Source: Clostridia bacterium (GTDB lineage Bacteria > Bacillota > Clostridia > CAKSNL01 > HGM11501). From it: a stretch of 64,000 bases of DNA. Positions 121-36,046 of this stretch are shown piece after piece. How positions within the stretch are numbered: position 1 is the stretch's first letter; each line of letters starts with the position of its first letter. The stretch covers positions 12,169 to 76,168 of the forward strand of contig JAZQAZ010000019.1 of assembly GCA_045545475.1 (NCBI GenBank). Direction: 5' to 3'. The translations under genes were made by a program, and so were the position numbers. The notes below the pieces were generated by a model that was given only the letters and a program-made list of their open reading frames with translations, was not told where the DNA came from and searched no databases.

Positions 121-2880
121 GTGAAAAAAATACTTGCATTAATGCTTTCGGCTATGCTGTGTCTGGCGTTTTTCACGGTTGCCGAAGCGAAAGAGGTTAA
201 AACCTTTATTCCTGCGGATATAAACGAAGGAAGGGAAAATATCACAGAATCTGGAGATAAAACTTCCGGTGAATATTTTTCCGTGAAGGAAGGTATGACT
301 TATTTCGGAATTAAAAATGTTGACCTTACGGGAGTAAAATCCATAAGCGTTGATGCCTTAATCGGTATGAACGGCACAAACAACGGTCAGATTTTAAGAA
401 TTAAGGTAGATGATCCTTATGCAGAGTCCATCGGACATATTGCGCTTAATCAGTATTCTCCCGATAAGAGCGTGACCGTAAGCGGAAATATAAAGGAAGT
501 AAACGGTGTACATAATCTTTATTTTGCAACAACCCTTACAAAAAATACCGGTGACTGGAAAATAAAGAAAATCACCTTGAATGATGAAGAATATAAAACT
601 GAGCCGACCACGCCCGACTCTGCCATAGTTGATTTTTATTCAGACACATGGGTGGCGGTTGACGATTACGGCAGAAAGGTTTCCGACTTTGAAGAAGTGG
701 GCCCCGTAAAAGAAGGGGAAAGAGATGTGGCTATGTTTTACTGGAACTGGCACGTGGGTCTAAATGAAACCGACAATCTCGTAATTCCCGATGTTTACAG
801 AGAATATCCCGAAGCAAAGAACAATATGCTTCATCCTGCCTGGGGATCTATGCACTCAAAGGGATGGTGGGGCGAGCCCATCTACGGCTTTTACTCAAGC
901 TATGACTATTTTGTATACCGTAAGCAGGCAGAGCTTTTTGACCTTGCCGGTGTGGATGTTCTCTTCTTTGACTACACCAACGGAACAAACTGCTTTATCC
1001 GTCCTTTAATCTGTATGATTGAAGCTTTTGACGATGCAAAGGCAGCAGGCGTAAATGTTCCGAAGCTTTCTGCTTTTTGTGCTATGAGCAATACAAACAC
1101 CACCACCTATGATCAGGTTATGGCAATATACTATAACATAATACTTGATGAAAGATATAATGACTTCTGGTATTACAAAGACGGTCTTCCATATCTTGTA
1201 GCATATGAGCCTACTAATGTTACTCACGGAGATGTTAACTACAAAGATAAAGATACCGTGAAAATGATAAATGAGATTGCAGGCAAGTTCAATTTAAGGC
1301 ATTGCGGAAGGCGTGATAAGTCAACCGGAAATGATGCCCTTGTTCATTGGCTCGATAACTACCCTCAGCCCGTAAGAGGATTTAAGATGACAGATGGCAG
1401 AAACGAATGGATGGCTGTCGGTATGGCGGTAAACGAATCCTATGTTGACCACGGTGCAAAAACAGGCGTATTCTCTGATCCTTATTCCAAGGGCAAAGGT
1501 TATTCTGAGGCATTCGGCGAAGATTATTCTGCAGACTGTGCAAGAAAGCCTTACTTCTTCCGTGAGCAGGCAGCCCTTTCACTTGAGGCTGATCCTCACA
1601 TTATGTTTGTTGACGGCTGGAATGAATGGAATACTGTTAAGTATACGGAATATTCGGGCTATAAAAATGCCTTCGTTGACCTTTGCGATGAAGAGGGCAG
1701 CCGTGACTTTGAGCCTTCGAGAAGCTATATAAAGGACGACTATTTCAATCTTTTGGTTGACTTTACAAGAAAGTACAAGGGCGTTCGTCCCGCACCCGTT
1801 GCATCGGCTGAAAAGACAATTGATATAGAAGGCGATGCAAAAGTATGGAGCGATGTGGCACCCGAATTCTTAAACTACAACGGGGAATACACCCGTGACG
1901 AAATCGGTTTCCTTGATAAGGAAACGGGCAAGAGTCTTCACTATACATCAACCACCTACAATTCTGTTGTTAAATCTAAGGTTGCAAGAGACAAGGATAA
2001 CTTCTATTTCTATGCTGAAACCGCAGAAGATTTAGTTGAATCTCCCGCCTGGATGCATCTATATATCAATGCCGACAGAAACATTGCAACAGGCTGGATA
2101 GGCTATGATTATGCGGTAAACGTAAACGGCAAAGGTGTTGTTTCAAAGTACGAAAATGGTACCTGGATAAATATAGGCACAGCATCGCTTAACGAATCGG
2201 GCAGAATTTTACAGCTTTCCTTTGCAAGAAGCTTAATCGGCGAAACAGGCATCGTTGATATTGAATTTAAGTGGACAGACAACTTTACAGGCACGGATTA
2301 TCTTGATTTTTATGACAAGGCATCCGTCGCACCCGCAGGAAAGTTTAACTATCTCTATACAGAAATTCAGCAGACCGCTTTGACGGCCGATGAGCGAAAA
2401 GCTCTTTATGAAACCACAATCGTTAAAGCCGGAAGCAATAAGATGATAATTGACGGCGGTAAAGTGGGAGTTTTTGAGGCTGATACAAGAATTACACCTT
2501 TTGAAGCAAACGGCACAGTTTACGTTCCTTTTATGACCTATGAGGATATACTGGGCTATGGGTATGCAAAGGTTGAATATGATTCTGAGGATAATATCCT
2601 CTATATGGCACGCCACGACCTTTCCGAGGACAAGAGGGAGATTACAAACTATCAGTGGACGTATAATGAGATTGGTACGCTTGCTGCCAGAATTAACGGA
2701 AGAGAAGTTTCACTCAGCAAGCCGGTAATGGTTGTAGACGGTCTTATTTATGTACCGCTTACTTATGTGAGTGATACTTTCGGATGGAACATAAAGAGCT
2801 TCGGAAACGGAGTATATGCACTGTCAAGAAATGCGATAGACGATAATCTTATATTAAGCGTTGTATCGCATATTGAATAA
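121..2880 (+). CDS. Cassette gene A1: secreted CBM6-like + GH99-like glycoside hydrolase + CBM9/DOMON-like + copper-amine-oxidase-N (stalk) domain
   Basis: Start GTG 121 after AAAGGAGG; signal peptide MKKILALML..AEA; CBM6-like FGIKNVDLTG..GVHNLYF; barrel motifs FYWNWH, WGEPIYGFY, AGVDVLFFD, DGWNEW; C-terminal NGTVYVP..DGLIYVPLTYVSDTFGW. Confidence 0.7.
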   Translation: MKKILALMLSAMLCLAFFTVAEAKEVKTFIPADINEGRENITESGDKTSGEYFSVKEGMTYFGIKNVDLTGVKSISVDALIGMNGTNNGQILRIKVDDPYAESIGHIALNQYSPDKSVTVSGNIKEVNGVHNLYFATTLTKNTGDWKIKKITLNDEEYKTEPTTPDSAIVDFYSDTWVAVDDYGRKVSDFEEVGPVKEGERDVAMFYWNWHVGLNETDNLVIPDVYREYPEAKNNMLHPAWGSMHSKGWWGEPIYGFYSSYDYFVYRKQAELFDLAGVDVLFFDYTNGTNCFIRPLICMIEAFDDAKAAGVNVPKLSAFCAMSNTNTTTYDQVMAIYYNIILDERYNDFWYYKDGLPYLVAYEPTNVTHGDVNYKDKDTVKMINEIAGKFNLRHCGRRDKSTGNDALVHWLDNYPQPVRGFKMTDGRNEWMAVGMAVNESYVDHGAKTGVFSDPYSKGKGYSEAFGEDYSADCARKPYFFREQAALSLEADPHIMFVDGWNEWNTVKYTEYSGYKNAFVDLCDEEGSRDFEPSRSYIKDDYFNLLVDFTRKYKGVRPAPVASAEKTIDIEGDAKVWSDVAPEFLNYNGEYTRDEIGFLDKETGKSLHYTSTTYNSVVKSKVARDKDNFYFYAETAEDLVESPAWMHLYINADRNIATGWIGYDYAVNVNGKGVVSKYENGTWINIGTASLNESGRILQLSFARSLIGETGIVDIEFKWTDNFTGTDYLDFYDKASVAPAGKFNYLYTEIQQTALTADERKALYETTIVKAGSNKMIIDGGKVGVFEADTRITPFEANGTVYVPFMTYEDILGYGYAKVEYDSEDNILYMARHDLSEDKREITNYQWTYNEIGTLAARINGREVSLSKPVMVVDGLIYVPLTYVSDTFGWNIKSFGNGVYALSRNAIDDNLILSVVSHIE

Positions 2881-2892
2881 GGAGGTTTTGGT

Positions 2893-5361
2893 ATGAAAAA
2901 AATATTTGCACTTATTTTAAGCATCGTACTTATGATATCCTCTTTATACATCTGTGTAAATGCAAAGGTTACGGAAGTTCCGGTTGAAAACTTAAAGGAA
3001 TCTGAAGCACTTCCTGCAAGAAGCACTTGGACTATTACGGCATCAAACTCATGGAAATGGGGGCCTGCCGAGAAAATGCTTGACGGCGATATAAAGACAA
3101 TGTGGCATTCATATTATAAGGAACAGGACGGAAAGGCAGTCGATAAAGCACCTGCACCTTATTATATTGATATCGAACTTCCCAAAAAAGCAGAAATAAC
3201 CGGCTTTGTATATGCACCCAGGCAGGATATTGATTCGGGCTATGTGTTTAACTGGGAAGCTTATTCCGTTTCAGATGACGGGAAAGAAGAATTGCTTGCA
3301 ACAGGTGAATTTGCCAGAAACAAAAATGCAAAGGTTGCATCATGGCAGGGCAAGGAAACCAAGAAAATCCGCATTGTGTTTACAAAGACTACAGGTGTAG
3401 GTACCTGTGCAGAGCTTTACCTTTTAGGCAAAGGGGAGGATGCATCGCTTTTCGCATCATCCGGCAATGCTACTGCTGATGAAAAAGAAAGCGTTGACGC
3501 TTCCCTTGAATCCAAGGTTCTCCCCGAAAGAAGCACCTGGACCATTACCTCATCAAGCTCATTGTCCTGGGCAGGACCTGAAAGAATGCTTGACGGAAAC
3601 GTGAAAACCTATTGGCATTCTTACTATAAGGAGCAGGACGGAAAGGCTGTTGATAAAGCACCCGCACCTTATTATATAGATATTGAACTTCCTGAAGAAA
3701 GCGTTGTAAAAGGCTTTACCTATGTGCCGAGAATTGATAATAATTCAGGTTATGTATTTAACTGGGAAGCATATGCTGTTTCAGATGACGGAACGGAAAC
3801 AAGACTTGGTGCAGGCACCTTCGCCAATGATGCAAACCCCAAAAGTGCAATCTGGAACGAAGTGAGCCTTAAAAAAATTCGCATAGTGTTTACTAAAACC
3901 ACAGGCGTTGGTACCTGTGCAGAGCTTTACTTAATCGGTAAAGGCGAAAGCGGAGTAAAGGCTCCTGCAACCGAAAAAAAGGAAGAGGTCAAAGATTCAA
4001 ATGTAAACGACAAAGGCTGGATTGTAACGGCATCATCTGAAAAGAACTGGGCCCCCGGCATAAGAGCATTTGACGGCAAAATGAATACCTACTGGCATAC
4101 AGATTACGAGGAGGAAGGCGGCAAAGTAATAAGCCACGATATGCCTCCTCACGATCTTAAGGTGACCTTCCCCGAAAAGAAGGTTATCAGCGGATTTACC
4201 ATTTATCCGAGAGAAGGGGCAACTTCTCAGGCGGGACTTGTAGAAAAGATTAACTTCTATGTATCCGATTCTGACGAAGGGGAATATTATCTTCTTTGCA
4301 CAGAGGAGTTTAATGCAACAACAACGGCAAAGGTTGTTGACTTTGCCTGCAGTATAGAAGTAAAAAGAATTTGGGTTGAAATAACAACAAGCTTTGGCGG
4401 CTATGCTGTTATTGCGGAAATGGAATTTTCAGAGCCGGGAGAAGATACGAAAATTGTTTCTTATGAGGATTTTGCTGCCACAAGAGATGAAAACCGTCTC
4501 TATAAGATTGATTCCTCGGGATTTACGGTAACGGATCCTGATAATACGCCTACATGGTCAGGAAACCCCGGAACACTTGTGGACGGAACAGAGAGAGGAT
4601 TCTGGCAGACAGAAAAGCTTGCACCGGGAACAGTGATATTTATCAATATGGATTTAGGCGAGGTTAAGGAATTTACACATATGTCAATTATTCCCAGACC
4701 TTCTGACGATTATCACGGCTATTGGGAAAAGTTTAATGTTTATGTGTCGGAGGACGGCGTTGACTATAAAGAGCTTTTATACGATTATTCCTTTGAAGAG
4801 GAAGAAAAGGATATATCCGAAAAATTCATTTTCTTTGAGGAAGGCGTAAAGGCGAGATATGTGGAGTTTGAAATAACGGAATATTTCAACGCCCGTGTAA
4901 GCTGTGCCGAAATAAGCTTCTGGCAGAACAAGGAAATGCACGATAAAACTTCCGATTCAGGTAAATATGTACTTAAAATAGGCTCTCCCGAAATTGAAAT
5001 CACAAAGGGAGGAAAGACCTATATCAAAACAATGGATGTTGCACCTTTCATAACTGCAAAAGGACAGACAATGATACCCTTGCGTGGACTTGTCGAAGAA
5101 ATGGGTATGGAGATAGAATGGATTGCTGAGACCCAGGAAATCATTCTTTCCAAAGGGATAAGAAAAATTAATCTTCAGATCAGAAACAAACTTGTAAAGG
5201 TGGAGGGTACGCCATACGGTGATGTGGTATACACTCTTTATTCTCCTCCGAAAATCAAGGATTCAAGAACCTTTGTGCCGGTAAGATTCTTATCCGAGCA
5301 GATGGGCTATACCGTAAATTGGGACGGCGAAAGCCAGACTGTAACAATTGAAAAAGAATAA
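2893..5361 (+). CDS. Cassette gene B1: secreted protein with 4 F5/8 type C (discoidin/CBM32-like) modules + stalk domain
   Basis: Signal peptide; four repeats of W..TAS..DG...T.WH/QS/T..PR; C-terminal APFI..TMIPLRGLVEEMG..RTFVPVRFLSEQMGYTVNWD. Confidence 0.8.
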   Translation: MKKIFALILSIVLMISSLYICVNAKVTEVPVENLKESEALPARSTWTITASNSWKWGPAEKMLDGDIKTMWHSYYKEQDGKAVDKAPAPYYIDIELPKKAEITGFVYAPRQDIDSGYVFNWEAYSVSDDGKEELLATGEFARNKNAKVASWQGKETKKIRIVFTKTTGVGTCAELYLLGKGEDASLFASSGNATADEKESVDASLESKVLPERSTWTITSSSSLSWAGPERMLDGNVKTYWHSYYKEQDGKAVDKAPAPYYIDIELPEESVVKGFTYVPRIDNNSGYVFNWEAYAVSDDGTETRLGAGTFANDANPKSAIWNEVSLKKIRIVFTKTTGVGTCAELYLIGKGESGVKAPATEKKEEVKDSNVNDKGWIVTASSEKNWAPGIRAFDGKMNTYWHTDYEEEGGKVISHDMPPHDLKVTFPEKKVISGFTIYPREGATSQAGLVEKINFYVSDSDEGEYYLLCTEEFNATTTAKVVDFACSIEVKRIWVEITTSFGGYAVIAEMEFSEPGEDTKIVSYEDFAATRDENRLYKIDSSGFTVTDPDNTPTWSGNPGTLVDGTERGFWQTEKLAPGTVIFINMDLGEVKEFTHMSIIPRPSDDYHGYWEKFNVYVSEDGVDYKELLYDYSFEEEEKDISEKFIFFEEGVKARYVEFEITEYFNARVSCAEISFWQNKEMHDKTSDSGKYVLKIGSPEIEITKGGKTYIKTMDVAPFITAKGQTMIPLRGLVEEMGMEIEWIAETQEIILSKGIRKINLQIRNKLVKVEGTPYGDVVYTLYSPPKIKDSRTFVPVRFLSEQMGYTVNWDGESQTVTIEKE

Positions 5362-5395
5362 AATAAACCCGCAGACAAAAGTCTGCGGGTTTATT
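5362..5395. terminator. Bidirectional intrinsic terminator
   Basis: AATAAACCCGCAGAC-AAAA-GTCTGCGGGTTTATT perfect stem between convergent genes. Confidence 0.85.
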
Positions 5396-9612: not shown

Positions 9613-12351
9613 ATGAAAAAAGTTGTATCGCTGCTTCTGACATTAATTATGATTATGTCTTTGGCAGCAACAGCATTTGCTGAAGGCGATATTGTGCTTG
9701 AAGCAAAAAATGCAACGCTTAATTCCGGTGCTACTGTGGACACAAGCGGTGCATATAACATTGTAAGAGGAGATTATTTCGGCTTTAAAGGTGTTGACCT
9801 TACCGGGATAAATTCCATAGGATTTCAGGTCAAGAGTAAAATCACAGGCGGAAACAACGGTGAAACCTATGCAATAAAGATTGACCATCCCGACTCGGGT
9901 CAGACAATCGGCTACATAACCGTTGAAAAGGAGTATGATAATGCGGTTATTATGACCGGAGTTGACTCGGCATCCGGCACACACGACCTTTATTTCAAGG
10001 GTACCTACGGATTTCAGATTGCAAACGAAATTATCGTAGAAAAGGTAATTCTTTCAAAAGATGTGTATACCTACGATAATACTGCCGCTCAGGTTTCAGA
10101 TGACTACATAAAGGATTTTTATCAGGATACCTGGGTTGCGGTTGACGATTTGGGCCGTAAGGTTGCAGACTTTGAAGAAGTAGGTCCTGTGAAGGAAGGC
10201 AAGAGAGAGTTTGGTCTTATCTACTGGAACTGGTTCGGAAGAAGAAATTCTCCTGCTATTGTTATCGAAGAGATAATCAAAAACAATCCCGATGCAAAGG
10301 ACGATTACAACCATCCTGCGTGGATTGTAGGTGCTAACTGTTATTGGGGCGAGCCTCTTTTAGGTTTTTATGATTCCTATGATTACTGGGTTTACAGAAA
10401 GCACGGCGAAATGTTTGCGACTGCAGGAGTCGATGCCATTTTCTTTGATTATTCAAACCAAGGATTAAACTTTCCCGGTGCTGTCGATGCAATAGTAGAG
10501 GCGTTCCGTGATGCTAAAAAGGCAGGCGTTGACGTTCCCGGAATTACCGGTATGTTCTCTCTGGGTGATAATCCTGAATTAAACACCCGTGCACTTCAGG
10601 AAATTTATCTTCACTGCTTTGTGAAAGAGGATTATTCCGATGTTTGGTTCCATATGGACGGAAAGCCCATGCTCTATTCCGGCAAAAAAATGTCACCCAA
10701 CAAAAAAGATCCGTATGAAGTTGCACTTACAGAAGAAATTACTGAATTTTTCACTTTCCGCACAAATGGTTACAGAAACCGTTACGATGAGCCTGATTAC
10801 TGGATGTGGCTTGAAAACTATCCACAGGTTAAGAGAATGGTAAATAAAGAAACCGGAAGAGTCGGATTTATGGTTGTTGGTACCGGTATAAATCAGTCTA
10901 CCGTTAATGCGGGTACGACAGGCGTATTCTCCGATCCTTATGCAAAAGGAAGAGGCTATTCAGAAGCCTTTGGTGAAGATTATACTGCTGATGGTATGAG
11001 GAAGGCATATTTCTTCCGCGAACAGGGAGGATTGGCTCTTTCCACCGATCCCGAGTTTGTTTTAGTTGATGGTTGGAACGAATGGAATACCGCGAGATAT
11101 GCAAACTATCAGAATCACAGAGGAAATGTTTTCGTTGACCTTTACGATCCTGAAAACAGCCGTGACTTCGAGCCCAACAACGGCCCCTTAAAAGACGACT
11201 ATTATCTCCTTATGACAGACTTTATAAGAAAGTATAAGGGCGTTCGTCCCGCTCCCGTTGCAAGCGGCGCAAAGACAATTGATATAGCAGGGGATATGGC
11301 TCAGTGGAATGGCGTTGGTCCCGAATTCTTAAACTTCGACCAGAGCTATGAGCGTGATTCTTACGGTGCAATTGACCCTTCGACAAACGCAAAGATTCAC
11401 TATACAACAACTGTTTCAAATGCAATTCTTTCGTCCAAGGTATCTTTTGATACAGAAAACATCTACTTCCTTGCAACAACAAAGGAAGCAATTGATGAAA
11501 ATTCCAAGGGCTTTATGAACCTTTACATTAATATCGACCGCAACCGTGCAACAGGCTGGGAAGGCTATGACTTTGCCGTAAACGTTGAAGGTAAGGGTAT
11601 AATTTCCAAAGCAAACGGAAACACCTGGGCGTGGACTAATGCAGGAAATGTTGCAACAAAGGTAAACGGAAACAATTATATGGTTGTAATTCCGAGAAGC
11701 GTACTTTCCGAAACAGCAACTGTTGACTTTGAATTCAAGTGGACAGATTCTGTAGAATGTAATGGAGATATATTAAGATTCTATGTTGACGGCTCAACTG
11801 CTCCTTACGGAAGATTTAACTATCTCTACACCGAAATAGAGCAGACATCACTTTCCGCAAGCGAAAGAGCGGCACTTTCAGGTACTTCTATTCTTAAAGC
11901 CGGTGCAGAAAATATGATAGTTTCCGGTGCAAAGATGGATATTTATGAAAAGGATACAACGGTGCGTGCATTTGAAATGAACGGCACACTTTATGTTCCT
12001 TCTGATGTATTTGAAGAGATTATGGGCTTTGGTAAGGCAAAGGTTGAATACGATCCCAACTACAACGTATTCTTCACACATCACATCACTTTAACTGAGG
12101 ATGAACAGGCGATAAAAGAACATAACTGGACAGTATCTGCTCTTAATTCTCTTGAAGTAAGAGTCGACGGCTCCGTTAAGACTATGTCAGCTCCCGTAAT
12201 CGCAAAGGATAATATGGTATGGGCTCCTCTTTCATTAATAGCTGATTGCTACGGATGGAATGTAACAAACTTAGGCAACGGTGTATATACAGTAGGAGAA
12301 AATGCCCCTGATATGAATACTGTAAACGCTGTACTTTCACATCTTAATTAA
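9613..12351 (+). CDS. Cassette gene A2 (paralog of A1)
   Basis: Same architecture: signal peptide, FGFKGVDLTG, DTWVAVDDLGRKV, WGEPLLGFY, DGWNEW, SRDFEP, stalk. Confidence 0.7.
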   Translation: MKKVVSLLLTLIMIMSLAATAFAEGDIVLEAKNATLNSGATVDTSGAYNIVRGDYFGFKGVDLTGINSIGFQVKSKITGGNNGETYAIKIDHPDSGQTIGYITVEKEYDNAVIMTGVDSASGTHDLYFKGTYGFQIANEIIVEKVILSKDVYTYDNTAAQVSDDYIKDFYQDTWVAVDDLGRKVADFEEVGPVKEGKREFGLIYWNWFGRRNSPAIVIEEIIKNNPDAKDDYNHPAWIVGANCYWGEPLLGFYDSYDYWVYRKHGEMFATAGVDAIFFDYSNQGLNFPGAVDAIVEAFRDAKKAGVDVPGITGMFSLGDNPELNTRALQEIYLHCFVKEDYSDVWFHMDGKPMLYSGKKMSPNKKDPYEVALTEEITEFFTFRTNGYRNRYDEPDYWMWLENYPQVKRMVNKETGRVGFMVVGTGINQSTVNAGTTGVFSDPYAKGRGYSEAFGEDYTADGMRKAYFFREQGGLALSTDPEFVLVDGWNEWNTARYANYQNHRGNVFVDLYDPENSRDFEPNNGPLKDDYYLLMTDFIRKYKGVRPAPVASGAKTIDIAGDMAQWNGVGPEFLNFDQSYERDSYGAIDPSTNAKIHYTTTVSNAILSSKVSFDTENIYFLATTKEAIDENSKGFMNLYINIDRNRATGWEGYDFAVNVEGKGIISKANGNTWAWTNAGNVATKVNGNNYMVVIPRSVLSETATVDFEFKWTDSVECNGDILRFYVDGSTAPYGRFNYLYTEIEQTSLSASERAALSGTSILKAGAENMIVSGAKMDIYEKDTTVRAFEMNGTLYVPSDVFEEIMGFGKAKVEYDPNYNVFFTHHITLTEDEQAIKEHNWTVSALNSLEVRVDGSVKTMSAPVIAKDNMVWAPLSLIADCYGWNVTNLGNGVYTVGENAPDMNTVNAVLSHLN

Positions 12352-14948: not shown

Positions 14949-14982
14949 AAAGCCTCAGGGAGAAATCCCTGAGGCTTTTTTA
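14949..14982 (+). terminator. Intrinsic terminator
   Basis: AAAGCCTCAGGGA-GAAA-TCCCTGAGGCTTT followed by T tract. Confidence 0.85.
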
Positions 14983-15095: not shown

Positions 15096-16364
15096 ATGCT
15101 AAAAAAAGAAAGAATAAGAATAGGTGCATACAGCCCTGTTTTAACCTTTGACGAGGAGCATGTGAAAATGCTTTCTGAAGCCGGAGTTGACTTTGCCATA
15201 TATTTAATGGATCACGTTGATGTTATTCCCGATGAATACAAGGAAAAAATACTTCGCTGGATGGAAAAGTACAACATTGAGGCGGCGTTAAGAGATGCAT
15301 CTATTGACAAGGTTATAAACAATGCCAACGTGGCAGACCTTAACAATATTGATAAAATGTTCTTTAAGGATTCGCCTTCCTTTGCGGCATATTGTTTTAT
15401 GGATGAGCCGGGAATGGTTCATTTTGACATACTGGGTGAGGAAGCTAAAAAATTCAAGGAAGCTTTTCCGGGCAAAGAAGTTTACTTAAATCTCCTCCCG
15501 ATGTATGCAAACAATACTCAGCTTAAAAACGGCGCCTGGGGAACCGGCGACGATACTTTTCCCGAAGGGTGTGACCCTTATGAGGTATATCTTGACGAGT
15601 TCGTGAAAAAAGTAGATGTTAACCACATCGGGGTTGATATTTATCCTTGCATGAAAAGACCGTGTAAGAATAACCCCGAAAGCTTTCCTGAAAAATATAC
15701 ACCTTATACATATAACAGATATTTAAGAAGTATCGAGGCTGTGGCGGACAAGTGCAGAGAATCGGGAAGGGAGCTATGGACTTGCGTTCAGACCTGCTCG
15801 GATTTAAGAAATTTCCGTGCAATAAATCCATCGGAGCTAAGGTGGCAGACATACACAATGCTTTCCTTCGGTGCAACGGCAATTATCTATTTCATTTTCT
15901 CGTCAAGAAACGGATGTAAGGGCTGTATACTTGATGAGGACGGAAATCCTACGGAGCTTTTCTATGCCTCTTCAAAGATGTGCAAAGGACTTAAAAAGCT
16001 TTCTGATTTATATATGAGCTTCAAAAACGTCGGTGCATTTGTGCTTGGTTATGACGAAGCAAAAACGCCATATCTTTATCTTAAAAATCCTTATGCTATA
16101 AATGATTTCGGCGTGATTTCCGATATTGAAACAAACACACCGCTCCTTATCGGCTGTTTCGAAAAAAAGGACGGTAAGGGCAAAGCCTTTACACTTGTAA
16201 ACCAGCAGGACTGGGCAGAGCCGCTTGACTCGGTTATAAAAATGAAAATTTCAGGCAAGGTAACAAAATATTACGACGGTGAGCCGGAAGTTATGAAGTC
16301 GGAAAACGGTGTCTACGAATTTCACCTCGCTCAGGGTGACGGAATATTTGTGACTGTTGAATAA
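15096..16364 (+). CDS. Hypothetical cytoplasmic glycoside-hydrolase-like TIM-barrel protein
   Basis: FMDEP, VYLNLLPMYA, GVDIYP, ELRWQTYTMLSFGA..IIYF resemble uncharacterised GH42/clan-A-like barrels; family not assignable by eye. Confidence 0.5.
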   Translation: MLKKERIRIGAYSPVLTFDEEHVKMLSEAGVDFAIYLMDHVDVIPDEYKEKILRWMEKYNIEAALRDASIDKVINNANVADLNNIDKMFFKDSPSFAAYCFMDEPGMVHFDILGEEAKKFKEAFPGKEVYLNLLPMYANNTQLKNGAWGTGDDTFPEGCDPYEVYLDEFVKKVDVNHIGVDIYPCMKRPCKNNPESFPEKYTPYTYNRYLRSIEAVADKCRESGRELWTCVQTCSDLRNFRAINPSELRWQTYTMLSFGATAIIYFIFSSRNGCKGCILDEDGNPTELFYASSKMCKGLKKLSDLYMSFKNVGAFVLGYDEAKTPYLYLKNPYAINDFGVISDIETNTPLLIGCFEKKDGKGKAFTLVNQQDWAEPLDSVIKMKISGKVTKYYDGEPEVMKSENGVYEFHLAQGDGIFVTVE

Positions 16365-21622: not shown

Positions 21623-21653
21623 AAAAGCTCCGAACAGCGTTCGGAGCTTTTTT
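21623..21653 (+). terminator. Intrinsic terminator
   Basis: AAAAGCTCCGAAC-AGC-GTTCGGAGCTTTT followed by T tract. Confidence 0.85.
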
Positions 21654-24222: not shown

Positions 24223-24226
24223 TTAA

Positions 24227-25705
24227 ATGAGTAATTTATCAGGATTTGTAAAAAGATTTCGTGACATTATGAGAAACGATGCCGGCATCAACGGCGATGC
24301 ACAGCGAATCGAGCAAATTGCGTGGATGCTTTTCTTAAAAGTATATGATGCCAAGGAGCAGGACTGGGAATTTGATGATGAAGCCTTTGTTTCCATTATT
24401 CCTGAAACCTGCCGTTGGCAGAACTGGGCACACGATGATAAATCAGGCACTGCTATGACCGGGGAAACGCTTTTGAATTTTGTAAATAATACGCTGTTTC
24501 CAACATTGAAAAAACTGCCGGTGGATGCTTCTACGCCTATTAAAAAGGCTATTGTCCAAACCACCTTTGCCGACGCCAATAACTATATGAAAGACGGTGT
24601 CCTGCTTCGTCAGGTTATTAATGTTATTGATGAACTTGACCTTTCCGATTACGAGGAAAGCCATGCTTTCGGAGATATTTATGAATCAATCTTGAAAGAA
24701 CTGCAGAGTGCGGGTTCAGCGGGAGAATTTTATACCCCTCGTGCAGTAACTGACTTTATGGCACAGATGATCGGTCCGAAAATTGGTGAAACTATGGCAG
24801 ACTTTGCTTGTGGTACCGGTGGATTTATTGTTAGTTGGTTAAAAGAACTCCAAAAACAAATTCGCAGCACTGCGGATGCCGAAAAATACGGTGAATCCAT
24901 TTACGGTATCGAGAAAAAACAGTTTCCGTATATGCTTTGCATCACAAATTTATTGCTACACGGTCTCGATGTTCCGCAGGTGTTCCATGATAACACTCTT
25001 TTGAAAGATGTGCTTGACTATACCGTGGAAGATCAGTTTGACGTTATACTTATGAATCCGCCATATGGCGGTAGCGAAAAGGCAGACGTAAAGAATCATT
25101 TTCCGTCTGACCTTGCAAGCAGCGAGACGGCAGACCTATTTATGTCGGTTATTATGTATCGTTTAAAGCAGAACGGTCGTGTGGCTGTAATTTTGCCTGA
25201 CGGTTTCTTGTTCGGTACCGATAATGCAAAAGTAAATATTAAGAAGAAATTATTGTCAGAGTTCAACCTTCATACCGTTATCCGTATGCCGGGTAGTGTT
25301 TTTGCTCCTTATACGTCTATTACAACAAATATTCTGTTCTTTGACCGCACAGGAGCAACGGAAGAAACTTGGTTTTACCGACTTGATATGCCGGAGGGAT
25401 ATAAGCATTTTTCAAAAACAAAACCCATGAAGCTGGAACATTTTGAACCCGTGATGGAATGGTGGAATAATCGCCGTGAGATTACGTTAGATGGTTTTGA
25501 TAAGGCAAGATGTTTTACTGCAGAGCAGCTTACCGAAGAATTCGGCTATAACCTTGACCAATGCGGATATCCCCATGTGGAAGAAGAAATTTTAGATCCT
25601 ATGGACTTGATTCAAAGATACCAGGAAGAACGTGCGTCTCTTAATGCAGAGATTGACCGTGTATTAGCTGATATTACTGCAATTCTTGGAGGTGGTCAGG
25701 AATGA
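24227..25705 (+). CDS. hsdM: Type I restriction-modification methyltransferase (N6-adenine)
   Basis: GEFYTPR, DFACGTGGF, MNPPYGG. Confidence 0.95.
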   Translation: MSNLSGFVKRFRDIMRNDAGINGDAQRIEQIAWMLFLKVYDAKEQDWEFDDEAFVSIIPETCRWQNWAHDDKSGTAMTGETLLNFVNNTLFPTLKKLPVDASTPIKKAIVQTTFADANNYMKDGVLLRQVINVIDELDLSDYEESHAFGDIYESILKELQSAGSAGEFYTPRAVTDFMAQMIGPKIGETMADFACGTGGFIVSWLKELQKQIRSTADAEKYGESIYGIEKKQFPYMLCITNLLLHGLDVPQVFHDNTLLKDVLDYTVEDQFDVILMNPPYGGSEKADVKNHFPSDLASSETADLFMSVIMYRLKQNGRVAVILPDGFLFGTDNAKVNIKKKLLSEFNLHTVIRMPGSVFAPYTSITTNILFFDRTGATEETWFYRLDMPEGYKHFSKTKPMKLEHFEPVMEWWNNRREITLDGFDKARCFTAEQLTEEFGYNLDQCGYPHVEEEILDPMDLIQRYQEERASLNAEIDRVLADITAILGGGQE

Positions 25706-27201
25706 CACCGCAGGAATTATTAGGAAGTGCATTAAGTCTAGCTGTGCAAGGAAAACTTGTTGAACAATTGGAGGTTGAAGGAACTTCCGATGATTTATAT
25801 AAATATCTTATTGAAACAAAAAGCGGTCTTATAAAAAAAGGAATCGCCAAAAAATCCAAAACACTTTCTCAAATAACAGAAGATGAAAAACTGTTTGATA
25901 TTCCTGACAGTTGGCGCTGGATAAAGATAGGAGAAATATCGTCGTTAATTACTAAAGGGACAACGCCACGCGGAGGAAATGTTAGCTATTTGGATGCTGG
26001 CGTTGGATTCTTGCGAGCAGAAAATGTTGCGGGGTTAGATAGACTTGATAAATCTAATCTAAAGTATATAGATGAAAACACCCATTTTGGTTTTCTTAAA
26101 AGGTCGGTACTCGAAGCTAATGATATTCTAATTACTATTGCTGGAACATTGGGGCGAACCGCGATTGTTAGAGAAGTTGATTTACCGCTCAATGCAAATC
26201 AAGCGGTTTCGATGATTCGTCTTGCGGATCCAGATGCGTTGAATTTAACATATCTTGTTTATGCTTTGAATTCTCCTGAAATACAGGATTACTTAACAAA
26301 GCAAAAAAAAGTTACAGCGATTCCCAATTTAACATTAGAGATAATAGAAAACTGTTTGTTGCCTCTTCCACCTCTTGCTGAACAGAAGCGCATTGTAGCA
26401 AAGATTGAGGAACTGTTACCTCTTATCGACCGCTATGAGCAAGCATGGAGCAAACTTGAAGACTTCAATAAGCGTTTCCCCGTGGATATGCAGAAATCCA
26501 TTCTCCAGATGGCAATTCAGGGCAAACTTGTTGAACAACGTCCCGAAGAAGGTACCGGAGAAGATTTGTTCCGTATAGTTCAAAAGAAAAAAGAGCAGCT
26601 GGTAAAAAACGGAGCAATAAAAAAGGATAAGCCGTTGCCAGAAATAACTGATGAAGAAATACCTTTTGAAATACCGACATCATGGAAATGGGTAAGAATA
26701 CAGGATTTGTTTAATGTTCGATCGGCAATGAGAATTCACCAAACAGACTGGAAAACAAGTGGTATCCCGTTTTTTAGAGGCCGAGAATTGGTGCAACTTG
26801 TAAAAACAGGAACGGTTAATTTTGAAATATACATTTCCAGAGAATTGTATGAAGCGAACAAAGCTAAAGGTGGAGTTCCACAAAAGGATGACCTTCTTAT
26901 TTCGGCAGTTGGTACTTTGGGTAAGGTGTATGTTGTTCAAGGCACTCATGAGTTTTATTACAAAGATGCCTATATTCTATGCTTGGAGAATATAGGAAAT
27001 GTTTATCCAAAATACATTAAGTATGTTTTGGAGAGTCCATATAATCAAACGGAAATACACCGAGATTCAATGGCGACTACCGTTGCACAATTAACGATTA
27101 TTAAAACAAAAAAACTATTAGTTCCACTCCCGCCTCTTGCCGAGCAGAAGCGTATCGTAGCCAAACTGGAAGAAATCCTGCCGTTGTGCGAGCAGATATA
27201 A
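25702..27201 (+). CDS. hsdS: Type I restriction-modification specificity subunit (two target recognition domains)
   Basis: Two QGKLVEQ..FD/EIP.SW.W..PLPPLAEQKRIVAK units; 4-bp overlap with hsdM. Confidence 0.93.
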   Translation: MTPQELLGSALSLAVQGKLVEQLEVEGTSDDLYKYLIETKSGLIKKGIAKKSKTLSQITEDEKLFDIPDSWRWIKIGEISSLITKGTTPRGGNVSYLDAGVGFLRAENVAGLDRLDKSNLKYIDENTHFGFLKRSVLEANDILITIAGTLGRTAIVREVDLPLNANQAVSMIRLADPDALNLTYLVYALNSPEIQDYLTKQKKVTAIPNLTLEIIENCLLPLPPLAEQKRIVAKIEELLPLIDRYEQAWSKLEDFNKRFPVDMQKSILQMAIQGKLVEQRPEEGTGEDLFRIVQKKKEQLVKNGAIKKDKPLPEITDEEIPFEIPTSWKWVRIQDLFNVRSAMRIHQTDWKTSGIPFFRGRELVQLVKTGTVNFEIYISRELYEANKAKGGVPQKDDLLISAVGTLGKVYVVQGTHEFYYKDAYILCLENIGNVYPKYIKYVLESPYNQTEIHRDSMATTVAQLTIIKTKKLLVPLPPLAEQKRIVAKLEEILPLCEQI

Positions 27202-30787: not shown

Positions 30788-30789
30788 TT

Positions 30790-30822: not shown

Positions 30823-30831
30823 CGCAAAAAA

Positions 30832-30903
30832 GATAAAAAAGCTAAGAAAATCAACAATGATGACAAAAAAACTAAGGAATTTACAGTTTTTATGTGTTAT
30901 AAT
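30832..30903 (+). promoter_or_regulatory. Tandem operator plus extended -10 promoter of cassette A4-B4
   Basis: GATAAAAAAGCTAAGAAA (30832) / GACAAAAAAACTAAGGAA (30862), then TGnTATAAT with -10 at 30898. Confidence 0.65.
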
Positions 30904-30934
30904 GATTGCAGGAATATTAACAGGAGGAGATTAT

Positions 30935-33694
30935 ATGAAAAAAATTGTATCAACCTTGCTCATTATATCTATGCTGGCATCCTTTTCTTTAGCAATTTCT
31001 GCGGAAACAGAAAAGGAATTAGATATACTTAAGCCTGACTTTAAAAATAATATTATGGTTTATGAAGATTGCATCAGATACAATACTAAAGACAGCTATT
31101 TCGGATTTAAGGCAGTTGACCTCACCGGAATAAAATCCATTGGAATCAGGGTGCTCAATACGTTTATAAGAGGCGCCGGAGAAAACGGAGATACTCTTGT
31201 TGTTAAGGCGGATGATCCGTTAAAAGGCGATGTGCTCGGATATATAGTTATGGCAGAAGCGGGAGAGCACATTTTCAAAACATCAATCTTTGAAACGGAG
31301 GGCGTTCACGATTTATACTTTGTTTCGCTTTACGGAGAAAACAGAGGAAATTCCAATATATATGAAATAAACTTATATAAAGATGAGTATGTTCAGGACA
31401 AATCCGCCTGTGTACCGGACTCATATATTAAAGACCTTTATTCGGATACCTGGGCAGCAACAGATTCCTACGGAAGAAAGGTGGCAGACTATTGTGAAAC
31501 CGGGGCTGTTAAAACCGACGGACGTGAAGTGGGAATTATGTACTGGAACTGGTTTGTTGCAGATACTGCTAAATACCGCGGAAGGGTTATTTCAGACGTA
31601 TTAAAGGAACACCCCGAAGCAAGAGACGATTATTACCACGAAGCCTGGGGGAAGAACAATAAATATTTCTGGACAGAGCCGGTGCTGGGATTTTACGATT
31701 CCTATGACTACTGGGTATACCGTAAACACGCCGAAATGCTTGCAGTTGCAGGCGTCGATGTGATATTTACCGACTGTACAAATGCGGGATATACATATAC
31801 CGAGCCTCTTACAATTCTTGCAAAAGCTTTTCGTGATGCGAAAAGGACGGGAATTGATGTTCCGAAAATTTCGGTTATAGGCTCCCTTGGCCGCGGTAAA
31901 TATGCATTTACCCAGCCTATGGCGATATATATGAATTTCTTTGTGGGAAACGATTATTCCGATATATGGTATTACCGCGACGGAAAGCCTATGATTTTTT
32001 CTACGGTATATAAAGCGGATACAAAGAAATATGCCAATGAAAAAGATACTGCACAGATGGATCTGGCGGAAGAAATACACGACTTTTTCACTTTCAGATA
32101 TGCCGGGGCGTACAGAAACAGTAAGGTTGCTCCCAATGAATGGTTCTGGCTTGAAGAATTTCCGCAGCAGCTTCGTAATCCCGATGAAACCGGACGGCCT
32201 GAAATGGTGGCGGTGGGATGCTCTATAAACACAACAGTCAATGCGGCAATGGGCGTGGCTACAGCTGCATCCAATCCCTGTGCAAAGGGCAGAAGCTTTT
32301 CCGAGGTATTCAACCGCGACTATTCTGCTGACAGTGCAAGAAAGGCATATTTCTTCCGTGAGCAGGCAGCGCTTGCTTTAGCGGCTGATCCTGAGTTTGT
32401 ATTTATTAACGGATGGAACGAGCTTTCGGCAGAACGAAAGAGCGAATGGTACGGGCAGACCAACACCTTTGTAGATACCTTTGATGACGAAAACAGCCGT
32501 GATTTCGAGCCGTCAAGAGGTGCTCTGAAGGATGATTATTATATGCTCCTTTGCGATTTTGTAAGAAAATTCAAGGGTGTTCGCCCTGCACCTGTTGCAA
32601 GCGGAATGAAAGCTATAGATATTAACGGTGAGCTTTCACAGTGGAGCGAAGTGGGTCCTGAATTTTTAAATACAAATCAGGATTACGAAAGAGATTCTGT
32701 GGGCTATGCAAAAGCGGGTACTGATTTTGAACCGAATATCTATAAAACAACTGTAAACAATGCTGTAAAGAGTGCAAAGGTGTCTTTTGACAATGAAAAT
32801 TTCTATTTCCTTGTATCCTGTGAAAAGGACATAAAGGAACACGACAAAAGCTTTCTTAATCTCTATATAAACACAGACAGGATGTATAATACCGGGTGGG
32901 AAGGTTATGACTATGCCTTTAATGTATCCGGAAAAGGTGTAATTTCAAAAAATGCAGGAAATGTATGGTGTTGGGAAAGTATCGGTAATGCAGAATACAG
33001 GATAACCGGAAATTCTATGATGGTTTCCTTTCCGAGAAGCTTTATCGGAGAGACGGAAAAGGTAGATTTTGAATTTAAATGGACAGATTCTGTTTCAGCG
33101 GAAGACGACTTTATGAATTTCTATTCTGACGGCTCGGTTGCACCCTATGGTCGCTTTAATTATCTCTATACAGAAAAAGAGCAGACAGCACTTACGGATT
33201 ATGAAAGAATGATGCTGTCGGATACGGCAATTATAAAAGCCGGTGCTGAAAATATGATAGTTGCAGGCGGAAAAATGCCGGTTTACGAAAAGAACAGAAA
33301 TGTACGTGCTTTTTCACAGAACGGAACACTTTATATCCCTGAAGATACATTGTGCGAAGTGCTGGGCTACGGCAGAACAAAAACAGACTATAATTCATTC
33401 TACAATGTTTCTAGAACCTATCATTACGAGATGAACGACGAACTGACAGAAGTAATTAATTATAAGTGGACATATACAACCCTCGGCACTAATGAAGCGA
33501 GAGTGGACGGAAAGCTTACCGGGCTTTCAAACCCCGTTATCTCAAGGGACGGAATTGTATTCATTCCCTTAAGCTTTATTGAAGAATGCTACGGATATGA
33601 AGTGAAGGCAATAGGAGAGGACGTTTATACCGTATGCACAAGGGGAACAGCACCGATTGATACGGTTATGAGTGTTTTGCATCACTTTGATTGA
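30935..33694 (+). CDS. Cassette gene A4 (closest to A2)
   Basis: ATG 30935 after AGGAGG; same architecture; motif variant NGWNEL. Confidence 0.7.
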   Translation: MKKIVSTLLIISMLASFSLAISAETEKELDILKPDFKNNIMVYEDCIRYNTKDSYFGFKAVDLTGIKSIGIRVLNTFIRGAGENGDTLVVKADDPLKGDVLGYIVMAEAGEHIFKTSIFETEGVHDLYFVSLYGENRGNSNIYEINLYKDEYVQDKSACVPDSYIKDLYSDTWAATDSYGRKVADYCETGAVKTDGREVGIMYWNWFVADTAKYRGRVISDVLKEHPEARDDYYHEAWGKNNKYFWTEPVLGFYDSYDYWVYRKHAEMLAVAGVDVIFTDCTNAGYTYTEPLTILAKAFRDAKRTGIDVPKISVIGSLGRGKYAFTQPMAIYMNFFVGNDYSDIWYYRDGKPMIFSTVYKADTKKYANEKDTAQMDLAEEIHDFFTFRYAGAYRNSKVAPNEWFWLEEFPQQLRNPDETGRPEMVAVGCSINTTVNAAMGVATAASNPCAKGRSFSEVFNRDYSADSARKAYFFREQAALALAADPEFVFINGWNELSAERKSEWYGQTNTFVDTFDDENSRDFEPSRGALKDDYYMLLCDFVRKFKGVRPAPVASGMKAIDINGELSQWSEVGPEFLNTNQDYERDSVGYAKAGTDFEPNIYKTTVNNAVKSAKVSFDNENFYFLVSCEKDIKEHDKSFLNLYINTDRMYNTGWEGYDYAFNVSGKGVISKNAGNVWCWESIGNAEYRITGNSMMVSFPRSFIGETEKVDFEFKWTDSVSAEDDFMNFYSDGSVAPYGRFNYLYTEKEQTALTDYERMMLSDTAIIKAGAENMIVAGGKMPVYEKNRNVRAFSQNGTLYIPEDTLCEVLGYGRTKTDYNSFYNVSRTYHYEMNDELTEVINYKWTYTTLGTNEARVDGKLTGLSNPVISRDGIVFIPLSFIEECYGYEVKAIGEDVYTVCTRGTAPIDTVMSVLHHFD

Positions 33695-33730
33695 ATTAAA
33701 GTTATACATCAATTGAAAGGGTGAATTATT

Positions 33731-36046
33731 TTGAAAAAGAGACTTTTTAGCTTAATATCAGCACTGTTTATTGTTACAGGAAGTGTTTTTGCGGCAGCCA
33801 ATGATGTTGACTTTGTCAAAGTCGAAGGCAGCGGAGGATCTGTCGGATATTATTCTGATTTACAGGAAGCTTTTAATTCTGTTTCAGAGGGGGATACGGT
33901 TACTTTACTTAAGGACTATACCTTTAATTATACAGGAAAAAGCATAACAGGAATTGATTTTCCTGAAGTGAAGTTCACATTTGACGGCGGGGGATTTACA
34001 ATAACTGACGCCTTTGACAGAAAGCTGCACGGAAATCATGACGACAGAGGATCGTATAAAATCTCCGGCGGTGATGTAACCGTAAAAAACGTAACCTTCA
34101 GAATGGATAACGCCATCACATCGGAGGATCAGGGGCATACAAACGGATGCTTTCTTGTTACAAACGGAACAGTCCGGCTTAATAATGTAACCATCACACA
34201 TTATTACGGACATAACGGAAGTGCCTTCTGGGGACAGGGCAACGGAAAAATAATCATAGAGGATAAAGTGACCGTTTCCGATTGTCACGCCAAAACGCGC
34301 GGAATTATCGGCCTTTACTTTCTCGATGCTGAAATTAACGGACTTACCGTAGATGGCGGAACGGGTGATGCGATAGTTGCAGGACCTGTAGGAGCAAAGG
34401 TAGAGCTTAAGCTTTCGGACACATCCATAAGCGGTGTTACAGGAAGCGGAATTGTGGCAGGCGGAACAAAAAGTGAAGAAAAGACGACAGTTGTTAACAT
34501 CAGTGGAGGTATAAAAATAACAAATTGTGAAGGCAGCGGAATACATATTAATCCCGGAGCACAGGTAAAGGTGAGAGGGGAAGCCGATTTATCCGGAAAC
34601 AAAGGTGGGAATATAAAGATAACCGGAAGCGGTATTTTAGACGCCGATCCTCCGATTATTGCAGAGGGTGAAAAAATTGTTGCCGGTGAAATTTCAAAAG
34701 CAGGGTGGACTGTTTCTGCAACCTCTGAATTTGTTAAAAATCCCGCTAAATATCTTATTGATAATGATACAAAAACCTTCTGGCATTCAAAGTATGATGA
34801 GATTGACGGAAAAGCGAAAAATATTGAGCCTGCACCGTACACTTTGGATTTTATACTTCCTGAAGTTACGGATATTTCCGGCTTCGCCCTCCTTTCAAGA
34901 AAGGATTCAAATTCAGGAGACCTTAAAAGCTATGATATTTTGGTATCGGATTCCGATGACGGAGAATTTTATGCTGTAGCTAAAGATATTACGGTTCCAT
35001 CGTATATGTATGAAGCAAAAGGATATACAAAGGTTATAAACCTTGTTGCAAATGTAAATGCAAAAAGAATAAGGCTTTATATAAAAGAGGGCTCGGTTGC
35101 GGCATTTGCGGAATTTTCCGTAATAAAAGGAGATGATGGGAAAGAAACGATGACTCCTGCGTCATACCTTGAGTATGCATCGCAGAACACTCCGCAGCTG
35201 ATTCCTTCCGATAAGTTTAAGGTTTCGTGTGAAGAAGAAGCCTGGATGCAATTTACAATAGTAAAGGCGTTTGACGGAACAAATCAGTCAATGTGGCAGA
35301 CGGAGGCTGTAGGCAGTCGTCCGGTTAAAATCTGCATAGATCTCGGAGAGGTTTACGAAATCGAAGAAATACATTATTTACCAAGACTTACAGAGGATAA
35401 ACACGGACTCTGGCTTAAAGCAAATATATCTTATTCAACAGATAAAACCGTATATGAGAAAATTGAAAATTACACTTTCAAAGAGAATCTTGACGAGAAA
35501 ATCATAAGCTTTGGCGAAGGGTGCAAAATGCGCTATGTCGAGATAGAAGTAACCGAATATGTTGCAAACAGAGTATCGGCATCGGAAATCAGCTTCTATG
35601 AAACAGGAAAAGGACATCGCGAAAGAATAGAAGAGAATAAAACCACTTATACACTTACCATAGGCTCAGATGTAATAAAAATAGCAAAAGGTAAAAACAA
35701 TGAAATTTCGGAAAAGAAAATAGATGTTGCACCTTATATTGTAAACGGTTCCACATTTATTCCTTTAAGAGGACTTCTTGAGGAAATGGGTGCGGAAATC
35801 TCCTGGGATGGAGAAAGACAGCTTATTACCGTAAAAAACAATGCACTCACCATTGAGCTTCAGATATGGAATAACACGGTTTGGGTAACAAATTCAAAGG
35901 TTGACGGCAGAATGATGTATTCTGTTCCGAATCCGCCCGTAATAAGTGACAACCGTACTTTTGTGCCGGTAAGATTTCTTTCGGAGATTCTTGGGTATAC
36001 CGTTTCCTGGGACGGTACTGCGCAGACTGTCACCATAAAAAATTAA
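33731..36046 (+). CDS. Cassette gene B4: pectin-lyase-like beta-helix + 2 F5/8C modules + stalk domain
   Basis: YSDLQEAF..GDTVTLLKD cap and G/N/V-rich repeats; FWHS and MWQT modules; APYIVNGSTFIPLRG stalk. Confidence 0.7.
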   Translation: MKKRLFSLISALFIVTGSVFAAANDVDFVKVEGSGGSVGYYSDLQEAFNSVSEGDTVTLLKDYTFNYTGKSITGIDFPEVKFTFDGGGFTITDAFDRKLHGNHDDRGSYKISGGDVTVKNVTFRMDNAITSEDQGHTNGCFLVTNGTVRLNNVTITHYYGHNGSAFWGQGNGKIIIEDKVTVSDCHAKTRGIIGLYFLDAEINGLTVDGGTGDAIVAGPVGAKVELKLSDTSISGVTGSGIVAGGTKSEEKTTVVNISGGIKITNCEGSGIHINPGAQVKVRGEADLSGNKGGNIKITGSGILDADPPIIAEGEKIVAGEISKAGWTVSATSEFVKNPAKYLIDNDTKTFWHSKYDEIDGKAKNIEPAPYTLDFILPEVTDISGFALLSRKDSNSGDLKSYDILVSDSDDGEFYAVAKDITVPSYMYEAKGYTKVINLVANVNAKRIRLYIKEGSVAAFAEFSVIKGDDGKETMTPASYLEYASQNTPQLIPSDKFKVSCEEEAWMQFTIVKAFDGTNQSMWQTEAVGSRPVKICIDLGEVYEIEEIHYLPRLTEDKHGLWLKANISYSTDKTVYEKIENYTFKENLDEKIISFGEGCKMRYVEIEVTEYVANRVSASEISFYETGKGHRERIEENKTTYTLTIGSDVIKIAKGKNNEISEKKIDVAPYIVNGSTFIPLRGLLEEMGAEISWDGERQLITVKNNALTIELQIWNNTVWVTNSKVDGRMMYSVPNPPVISDNRTFVPVRFLSEILGYTVSWDGTAQTVTIKN

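Follow-up and report, generated by a model that had tools for sequence, protein, structure and literature searches.

Two routes by which anaerobes couple the capture of glycans to their cleavage have been described, one based on cohesin and dockerin modules and the other on SusCD. In cellulosomes, many enzymes are held on a shared scaffoldin, with a C-terminal docking module on the secreted enzyme for a non-catalytic partner that bears carbohydrate-binding modules (CBMs), and in the polysaccharide utilization loci (PULs) of Bacteroidota and their gram-positive counterparts in Firmicutes (gpPULs) an endo-enzyme and a lectin are accompanied by nearby exo-glycosidases and regulators. The multi-CBM32 hydrolases of Clostridium perfringens (NanJ, NagJ, GH31, GH89, and ZmpB) carry their CBM32 domains on the enzyme chain itself. 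A different protein-protein assembly module is the PF07833 stalk, which in the E. coli copper amine oxidase (domain D1; 1OAC) forms a homodimer. In Paenibacillus PaSOD the N-terminal domain of the same family (8IMD) mediates homodimerization (PMC10432803). Herein we describe a two-gene cassette in which a gene for an enzyme-like protein (A), related to glycoside hydrolase (GH) families GH99 and GH71, is followed by a gene for a multi-lectin protein (B), and both proteins end in a PF07833 stalk. Four copies are found in a 64,000-nucleotide stretch of DNA (the window) from a Clostridia bacterium (GenBank assembly GCA_045545475.1, contig JAZQAZ010000019.1, positions 12,169 to 76,168 of the forward strand).

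This two-gene system is lineage-wide and massively amplified. The initial annotation was right about the four cassettes of the window, but the rest of the genome lay beyond its view: the source genome (G000; 2.74 Mb, 95% complete) contains 42 full-length A paralogs that are 33-60% identical to the first A of the window (A1, itself set aside), and the amplification that had been proposed is real, although it is 42-fold rather than 4-fold and apparently pair-specific. A complete B lies directly 3' of 40 of the A genes and a B cut by a contig end lies behind another, while in the remaining case a 274-residue xylose-isomerase-like gene is inserted ahead of B. Every complete B-type stalk in the genome stands behind an A, and the A and B genes together make up 224,920 nt, or 8.2% of the assembly. 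In 37 of 41 pairs, no more than ~4 nt separate the stop codon of A from a motif resembling a ribosome-binding site, and 35 of the 41 complete B partners have a hairpin behind them. Six A genes have an upstream gene at most 22 nt away, and thus not every cassette has its own promoter. The motif GACAAAAAA was considered as a cassette-wide upstream signal and was dropped, as it is present in only four of the 42 upstream regions. Both proteins had been predicted to be secreted, and by a crude rule all 42 A and all 42 B proteins do have signal-like N-termini; by rules of the same kind there is no further transmembrane segment and no LPxTG motif in either set, and no lipobox in B. In RNA runs the shares were small throughout (0.06-0.13) and the contig pieces were short and for the most part 90-95% alike, which says nothing about expression or co-transcription. 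Relatives of the cassette were not found in viral contigs.

The linkage of A to B was put to the test in other genomes and was not refuted. The barrel of A is present in all 13 relatives from the same family as the source genome. Of the evaluable loci with a stalk-bearing A, 63 of 66 in one set and all 71 in another have a gene encoding F5/8 (CBM32) domains 3' of it; two more loci of the first set and three of the second had no room for one. These two sets overlap and come from few genomes, and so they are not independent trials. The three loci lacking an F5/8 gene comprise a cut open reading frame (ORF), an inserted-gene arrangement, and one true exception (L229). Fragmented B genes are seen beside intact A genes in one relative (L051:8678-11104 and L053:8688-10801), reflecting either decay or sequencing error. 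An in-frame fusion of A to B is represented by protein P0064 (a cluster of two), in which the CBM6 and barrel of A are joined to the last two CBM32 domains and stalk of B, without the A stalk and most of the beta domain; it matches the cassette at C20:136249 and is therefore taken to be a deletion allele or an assembly artifact. Long fused forms of the B core (1401-4000 residues) were not found at E ≤ 1e-20, which is weak evidence.

The A proteins consist of a signal peptide, a CBM6 domain, a GH99-like barrel, a beta domain, and an atypical PF07833 stalk, the CBM6 being absent from the initial annotation. In A3 (16461-19202, 913 residues), which serves as the reference for residue numbers and whose predicted structure is of high quality (predicted local distance difference test 94.1, predicted template modeling score 0.94, 112 sequences in the alignment), the CBM6-like domain spans residues 25-152 (16533-16916). 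It matches 1gmm by profile (E 4e-6) and 2v4v by fold (Z 15.8, root-mean-square deviation (rmsd) 2.1, 120 residues aligned), and its PF03422 score of 27.5 bits is just below the cut-off of 28.9. The barrel (residues 165-549; 16953-18107) has the GH99-like fold that had been suggested, with GH99 as its best match (Z 19.2, rmsd 4.8, 269 residues aligned) and GH99 entries at ranks 1-28 of the fold search at 12-16% identity. The closest structures are the endo-alpha-1,2-mannosidases/mannanases BxGH99 (4ad1), BtGH99 (4acy), and human MANEA (6zfn). The GH71 alpha-1,3-glucanases AnGH71C (9fnf) and Agn1 (8yfh), together with the GH71/99-like PmGH99 (PMC13421300), have a related barrel that is also followed by a beta domain, but their Z of 14 is lower than that to GH99. 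A single-sequence search of the PDB with A3 returned nothing significant. A profile of the barrel aligned with GH99 over the N-terminal half (hhalign 81%, E 1.2e-5). Searching the whole source genome with PF16317 at E ≤ 1 gave nine matches, all of them A paralogs, none of which was above the cut-off (best score 20.9 bits, cut-off 33). The barrel family itself comprises 1,137 clusters at E ≤ 1e-10 and has no Pfam or NCBIfam match above cut-off. In the ESM Atlas the barrel is nearest to unnamed clusters, with GH99 clusters at 0.83-0.85 and the A stalk below 0.9, and these values serve as leads only. The barrel is followed by an all-beta domain without a family match (residues 555-742; 18123-18686) and the A-type stalk (residues 745-913; 18693-19199). 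In some A proteins (P0121 and L057:1-3036), the N-terminal end itself bears one or two CBM32 domains.

Several residues of the barrel are conserved. The sequence W-N-E495 is invariant in all 42 A paralogs of the source genome (the Glu495 codon of A3 is at 17943-17945), and all 147 distant representatives have Glu495, Asn494, Asp280, and Arg521, while Asp513 is found in 146 (one has Glu) and Asp522 in 145. By eye, A shares with GH99 an N-E-W motif that precedes an E-P...DDYY stretch. The catalytic motifs are EWHE in GH99 and DYGE in GH71 as given in PMC13421300, and EWHE was also seen directly in our comparison. The A proteins have neither: where EWHE has its second Glu, 112 of the 147 representatives have Ala and none of the motif rows has Glu, and W-N-E stands in place of DYGE in 42 of 42. 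The A proteins also differ from GH99 in falling below the PF16317 cut-off and in having the additional CBM6, beta domain, and stalk. The lack of EWHE places them in a separate family rather than in GH99 proper, and from these motifs A is predicted to work like a GH99/71 enzyme yet belongs to neither family. An inserted loop containing the conserved Asp513 follows the position of the second Glu, and Asp513 and Asp522 are candidates for the second acid.

The B proteins contain a signal peptide, two to five CBM32 domains, and a B-type stalk, and the constant core in the source genome is two CBM32 domains plus the stalk. The CBM32 assignment comes from both the PF00754 profile and the fold (Z 20.7, rmsd 1.7, 137 residues aligned to 2v72), the closest structures being those of the C. 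perfringens hydrolases, but in the cassettes these domains are on a separate gene product. A W-H motif, for which a role in ligand binding is predicted, is present in 41 of 43 CBM32 domains at the second-last place and in 64 of 73 at earlier places. We take W-H and P-R to be the galactose-binding residues of CBM32. The stalk-adjacent CBM32 has W-Q in 82 of 135 cases and W-H in 49 of 135, and with this latter count the idea that the last CBM32 always lacks its His was dropped. All eight window proteins had been described as ending in PF07833, and all eight reach the curated cut-off of 24.2 bits, the A proteins at 24.4-38.7 bits and the B proteins at 99.6-108 bits. The stalks are of two subtypes that occur almost only together. 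Counted from the alignment, the motif PLRxLxxxM is present in 41 of 42 B stalks and in none of the 24 other stalks of the genome. The fold searches did not list 1OAC or 8IMD for the stalks because other domains filled those lists.

Evidence that the two stalks contact each other comes from covariation in paired alignments of A 545-913 and B 515-800. Eight top-scoring column pairs were singled out from the alignment of 83 pairs, and six of them join A 813-855 to B 725-766 (z 6.3-9.4), compared to maxima of 5.5-6.7 when the pairing is shuffled and 6.3 when the barrel is compared with B. When each A is re-paired with the B of its nearest paralog, the six column pairs fall to z values of -0.2 to 3.8. 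With 135 pairs, the top seven of 99,246 A-B column pairs all lie within the stalk-stalk patch, which corresponds to positions 18897-19025 in A3 and, for residues 725-766, 21388-21513 in B3. The residues involved are complementary in charge, with ratios of opposite to same charge of 43:0 at 855/725, 14:0 at 851/727, 16:0 at 822/743, and 31:2 at 813/745, and charge-reversed states occur at covarying positions. When charges were correlated over 120 x 121 columns, the four strongest anti-correlations all fell in the stalk patch, although single r values of about the same size are seen in the opposite tail. A hold-out set comprised 18 new pairs whose stalks are less than 70% identical to those used for training. 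Its charge score was 22 compared to 10.3 ± 3.2 (1 of 5000 permutations), and the six-pair model placed the true partner at rank 0.14, compared to 0.42 for randomly chosen columns (0.245 at best in 200 sets). Changes at the six positions are also coupled across 56 disjoint sister pairs (r 0.41 vs. -0.01 ± 0.06; 0 of 2000), and 40 pairs have 39 distinct residue codes on each side. The proposal that the proteins assemble through their stalks is thus supported, as a predicted A-B contact, by inter-chain covariation confined to a single stalk-stalk patch. The pattern does not look like the symmetric stalk dimer of the E. coli amine oxidase, since A and B have stalks of different subtypes and the positions that covary do not correspond by symmetry. 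In the predicted secondary structures, strands of the second stalk repeat carry the A positions and those of B fall at hairpin tips and turns, and the predicted contact looks asymmetric, which suggests a heterodimer unlike either of the described PF07833 homodimers.

We regard the computational evidence for cognate stalk-to-stalk docking as good. That A and B bind each other in one manner or another is highly probable from these sequence patterns, and it is likely that they do so as pair-specific (cognate) 1:1 heterodimers that are docked stalk to stalk. If instead any A could dock with any B to give a mix-and-match pool, the covariation would only preserve the compatibility of the interface. 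The commonest states are indeed widely held (R/Q in 43 of 83 pairs at 851/727 and K/E in 27 of 83 at 855/725) and only 24% of the non-cognate combinations come out as repulsive by net charge score. However, one would not expect compensatory change within cognate pairs unless each A encountered mostly its own B, the signal is removed by nearest-paralog re-pairing, and charge-reversed states do occur, all of which make such promiscuous binding rather unlikely. It is also conceivable that A and B are co-transcribed and act on the same glycan without contact, with each stalk a self-contained module for binding the cell wall, a role that has been loosely suggested for PF07833 in surface proteins of Firmicutes. 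PF07833 is present on surface proteins (PMC4137172) and on the cell-surface cohesin protein OlpC/ScaG (PMC3413522); the corresponding slot is a membrane anchor in other lineages, 24 other stalk proteins of the source genome have no such partner, and co-duplication alone yields correlated trees (r 0.2-0.5 for all comparisons of A and B parts). Contact between the chains is nevertheless indicated by a charge-complementary covariation that is limited to one patch per stalk and absent from the barrel, and by two stalk subtypes that are found almost exclusively together, and a lack of contact therefore appears quite improbable. Tree-distance correlations were not relied upon because they are seen between all A and B parts (0.16-0.49), the highest being that of the A stalk with the last CBM32 (0.49), followed by that with the B stalk (0.43).

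Several observations weigh against cognate docking. The 18 hold-out pairs taken alone, a set that is too small, show no covariation (ranks 238 to 72,623 of 96,642), the 41 training pairs from other genomes place only 851/727 in the top ten, and the six column pairs used in the sister-pair analysis had been chosen on the 83 sequences that were also used there. Column pair 818/766 has eight same-charge cases. Column pair 636/601, which is outside the patch and has no charge pattern, reached z 8.3 with 83 pairs and was gone from the top 20 with more data, showing that single high values can be noise. The PaSOD report (PMC10432803) states that one-repeat domains dimerize into what a two-helix domain forms alone, and a two-repeat stalk therefore need not bind anything. 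Locus L229 of a relative has an A without a B, neither A nor B has a recognized wall anchor, and the five to six sugar-type solute-binding proteins of the source genome, with no MFS_2 transporter, are few for 42 extracellular systems.

We propose, with cognate docking as the preferred interpretation, that each cassette is bicistronic and encodes a secreted device of two chains for glycan foraging. The A protein would be an active glycoside hydrolase of an undescribed GH99/GH71-like family, probably endo-acting on alpha-linked glycans, and B would be a non-catalytic array of CBM32 lectin domains that bind sugars. Once both proteins have been exported by Sec, the A-type stalk is predicted from the covariation to dock through its outer sheet (813-855) with a loop end of the B-type stalk (725-766), with charge-complementary variable residues at the interface that would favor the partner from the same operon among the 42 paralogous pairs. 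B would then keep its enzyme attached to one particular polysaccharide. The stalks may in addition anchor the two proteins to the cell wall, which is the weakest step. Oligosaccharides that are freed would be passed to nearby cytoplasmic exo-glycosidases such as rhamnosidases and hexosaminidases, and the 42 pairs would span many structurally different glycans. Such a device resembles a split modular CAZyme in function. It differs from cellulosomes in that each enzyme shares its operon with the gene for a single, apparently specific partner, and from PULs and gpPULs in having no SusCD, almost never its own importer, and a predicted direct docking of enzyme and lectin.

The attachment of the barrel differs between lineages, which leads us to infer that its tail is a swappable slot. 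The barrel was found in 27 genomes of a 400-genome Clostridia sample. First-look candidates, which are not copy numbers, are 44 in the source genome (42 of them true), 58 and 50 in family f59, and up to 34 in family f15. No B gene was found in 20 loci from other Clostridia lineages, and in most of them the barrel ends by eye in a hydrophobic anchor with a basic tail (f59, f15, and G323). Dockerins occupy the tail slot in four of four tested proteins of G203, G388, and G228, such that homologs of A bear true docking modules of the cellulosomal type, and the tail is an ordinary stalk in G267 and a weak stalk with a long extension in G012. A crude survey of the C-termini of the 147 representatives gave 20 A-type stalks, 15 other stalks, 13 transmembrane segments, and three that are dockerin-like, with 96 left without assignment. 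The Bacteroidota homologs consist of only the barrel and beta domain. Some of these relatives merit mention in their own right. Apparent expansions of the barrel, with 21-58 candidates per genome, are seen in G128 and G409 (f59) and in G178, G278, G301, G367, and G027 (f15) (loci L196-L209), where the copies seen have a C-terminal membrane anchor in place of the stalk. The proteins that combine the barrel with a type I dockerin (L210:2797-5373, L211:2858-7820, and L212:3312-5609) are candidates for cellulosome-like complexes. In the sister genus, the A homolog at L215:2-4642 (G012; 1,500-1,650 residues) has a divergent stalk and a long C-terminal extension without assignment, and no B was seen before the contig ends there.

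The genes around the cassettes give some indication of their role. Among 163 of 259 flanking ORFs that were scanned, plus the window, there are 19 AraC regulators and glycosidases of families GH20 (four), GH78, GH106, and GH43 (three each), and GH2 (two), with single genes for GH3, GH28, GH29, GH36, GH39, GH42, GH110-like, and DUF2961 proteins, as well as esterases, sugar oxidoreductases, and interspersed housekeeping genes. The three glycosidases in the window have no signal-like N-terminus. The importer families represented in the source genome are PF01547 (five matches), PF13416 (six, four above the cut-off), and PF00528 (14), with no PF13347 (MFS_2). A sugar ABC importer is almost never found at a cassette, although there is one CUT-type locus near C31. 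In Bacteroidota, 43 proteins from 14 loci that contain homologs of A include several SusC, SusD, GH78, GH106, GH127, GH36, GH32, and DUF5722 proteins, and the A homologs there are PUL genes. These surroundings bear upon whether the barrel is degradative at all. The pair could be an adhesin or glycan sensor, or A could be a transglycosylase that remodels the cell's own surface, as A lacks the second GH99 glutamate, importers are few, and many cassettes are beside housekeeping genes. We consider this very improbable given that Glu495, Asp513, Asp280, Arg521, and Asp522 are conserved across phyla, that the homologs are in SusCD loci with exo-glycosidases, and that the flanks are rich in catabolic glycosidases and AraC regulators. 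With A as a degradative enzyme, the rhamnosidases and hexosaminidases together with the many paralogs suggest diverse heteropolysaccharides, perhaps microbial, as the substrates, which is a guess. Capsules or exopolysaccharides of microbes are the leading guess among specific substrates, and a tentative one.

The eight ORFs of the four pairs in the window are all on the forward strand at the positions first assigned to them. A1 (121-2880, 919 residues, GTG start; signal peptide, CBM6-like domain, GH99-like barrel, beta domain, and A-type stalk) precedes B1 (2893-5361, 822 residues; signal peptide, four CBM32 domains, and B-type stalk), and A2 (9613-12351, 912 residues) precedes B2 (12363-14936, 857 residues; four CBM32 domains and B-type stalk). 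A3 is followed by B3 (19216-21618, 800 residues, GTG start), with CBM32 domains at residues 26-173, 189-335, 351-497, and 518-659 and a stalk at 668-800 (21217-21615). A4 (30935-33694, 919 residues) is followed by B4 (33731-36046, 771 residues, TTG start), in which an N-terminal region of ~300 residues without a Pfam or PDB match is followed by only two CBM32 (F5/8) domains and the B-type stalk, unlike B1-B3, which have four F5/8 domains each and, as first reported, no catalytic domain (in Pfam). The paralogs in the window are 42-60% (A) and 37-42% (B) identical. NCBIfam gave no real match for nine proteins. As had been noted, in pairs 1-3 the stop codon of A runs into the ribosome-binding site of B (TAAGGAGG in pair 1, TAAAGGAGG in pair 2, and TAAGGAGG in pair 3), and the fourth pair has a gap of 36 nt. 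Strong terminator-like hairpins lie 3' of B1 (5362-5395, common to a convergent AraC gene), B2 (14949-14978, forward strand), and B3 (21624-21653, forward strand, with a T run), in line with the terminators first proposed, and there is none behind B4. A promoter for each pair had also been claimed, and promoter-like sites do precede A1, A2, and A3, but A4 has by eye only an extended -10 box. Promoter scans overall were near the level of shuffled sequence (59 vs. 45.9 ± 6.0 and 45 vs. 44.1 ± 8.3), and for that reason an own promoter for the window cassettes is plausible and nothing firmer. The absence of cohesins and dockerins stands for the eight window proteins but does not extend to the genome, which has four dockerin and two cohesin matches outside the cassettes.

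Other features of the window and genome are noted here. A doubled motif resembling GACAAAAAAACTAAGGAA is present at 30850-30885, before A4, and again at 36055-36110, where it precedes two tandem metallophosphoesterase genes (36160-38021), and it may be a site for a shared regulator. A type I restriction-modification operon (HsdR, HsdM, and HsdS) lies between cassettes 3 and 4 (21862-27201). Between B2 and A3, a 422-residue ORF (15096-16364) resembles a glycosidase barrel by eye and has no signal peptide and no Pfam, NCBIfam, or PDB match. Elsewhere in the genome, a small cohesin-dockerin cluster (C20:54400-59800) encodes a 1,329-residue protein that combines a cohesin with an ordinary stalk in an OlpC-like arrangement. 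Giant secreted proteins (2,256-3,070 residues) with several CBM32 domains are encoded at C30:100142-109354, C37:28695-36701, and C14:31707-38477, two of them just behind cassettes.

The analysis presented herein points to the cassettes as an undescribed way to build glycan-foraging complexes. Apart from CBM6 and CBM32, the cassettes have no component in common with the known assemblies, and the literature, searched by title and start of abstract, held no paper on the cassette or the A family. A more far-reaching interpretation, which we regard as possible but short of even likelihood, is that in one lineage of uncultured Clostridia the PF07833 stalk has been turned into an orthogonal, pair-specific docking code that gives dozens of insulated enzyme-lectin devices based on a new GH99-like family, with a separate polysaccharide as the target of each, possibly a capsule or exopolysaccharide from another gut microbe, and that unrelated families of uncultured Clostridia expanding the same enzyme with other anchors form an unrecognized feeding guild. 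If cognate docking is correct, it would represent a third route, beside cohesin-dockerin and SusCD systems, for coupling glycan capture to cleavage in anaerobes, and PF07833, which is very common and functionally obscure in Firmicutes, would gain a role as a hetero-docking module. The approximately 40 natural cognate pairs in one genome are also a possible source of orthogonal protein tags. Moreover, this large GH99/71-like family is without a match in Pfam or NCBIfam, so that annotation would overlook a set of proteins by which several lineages of uncultured Clostridia may mainly feed.

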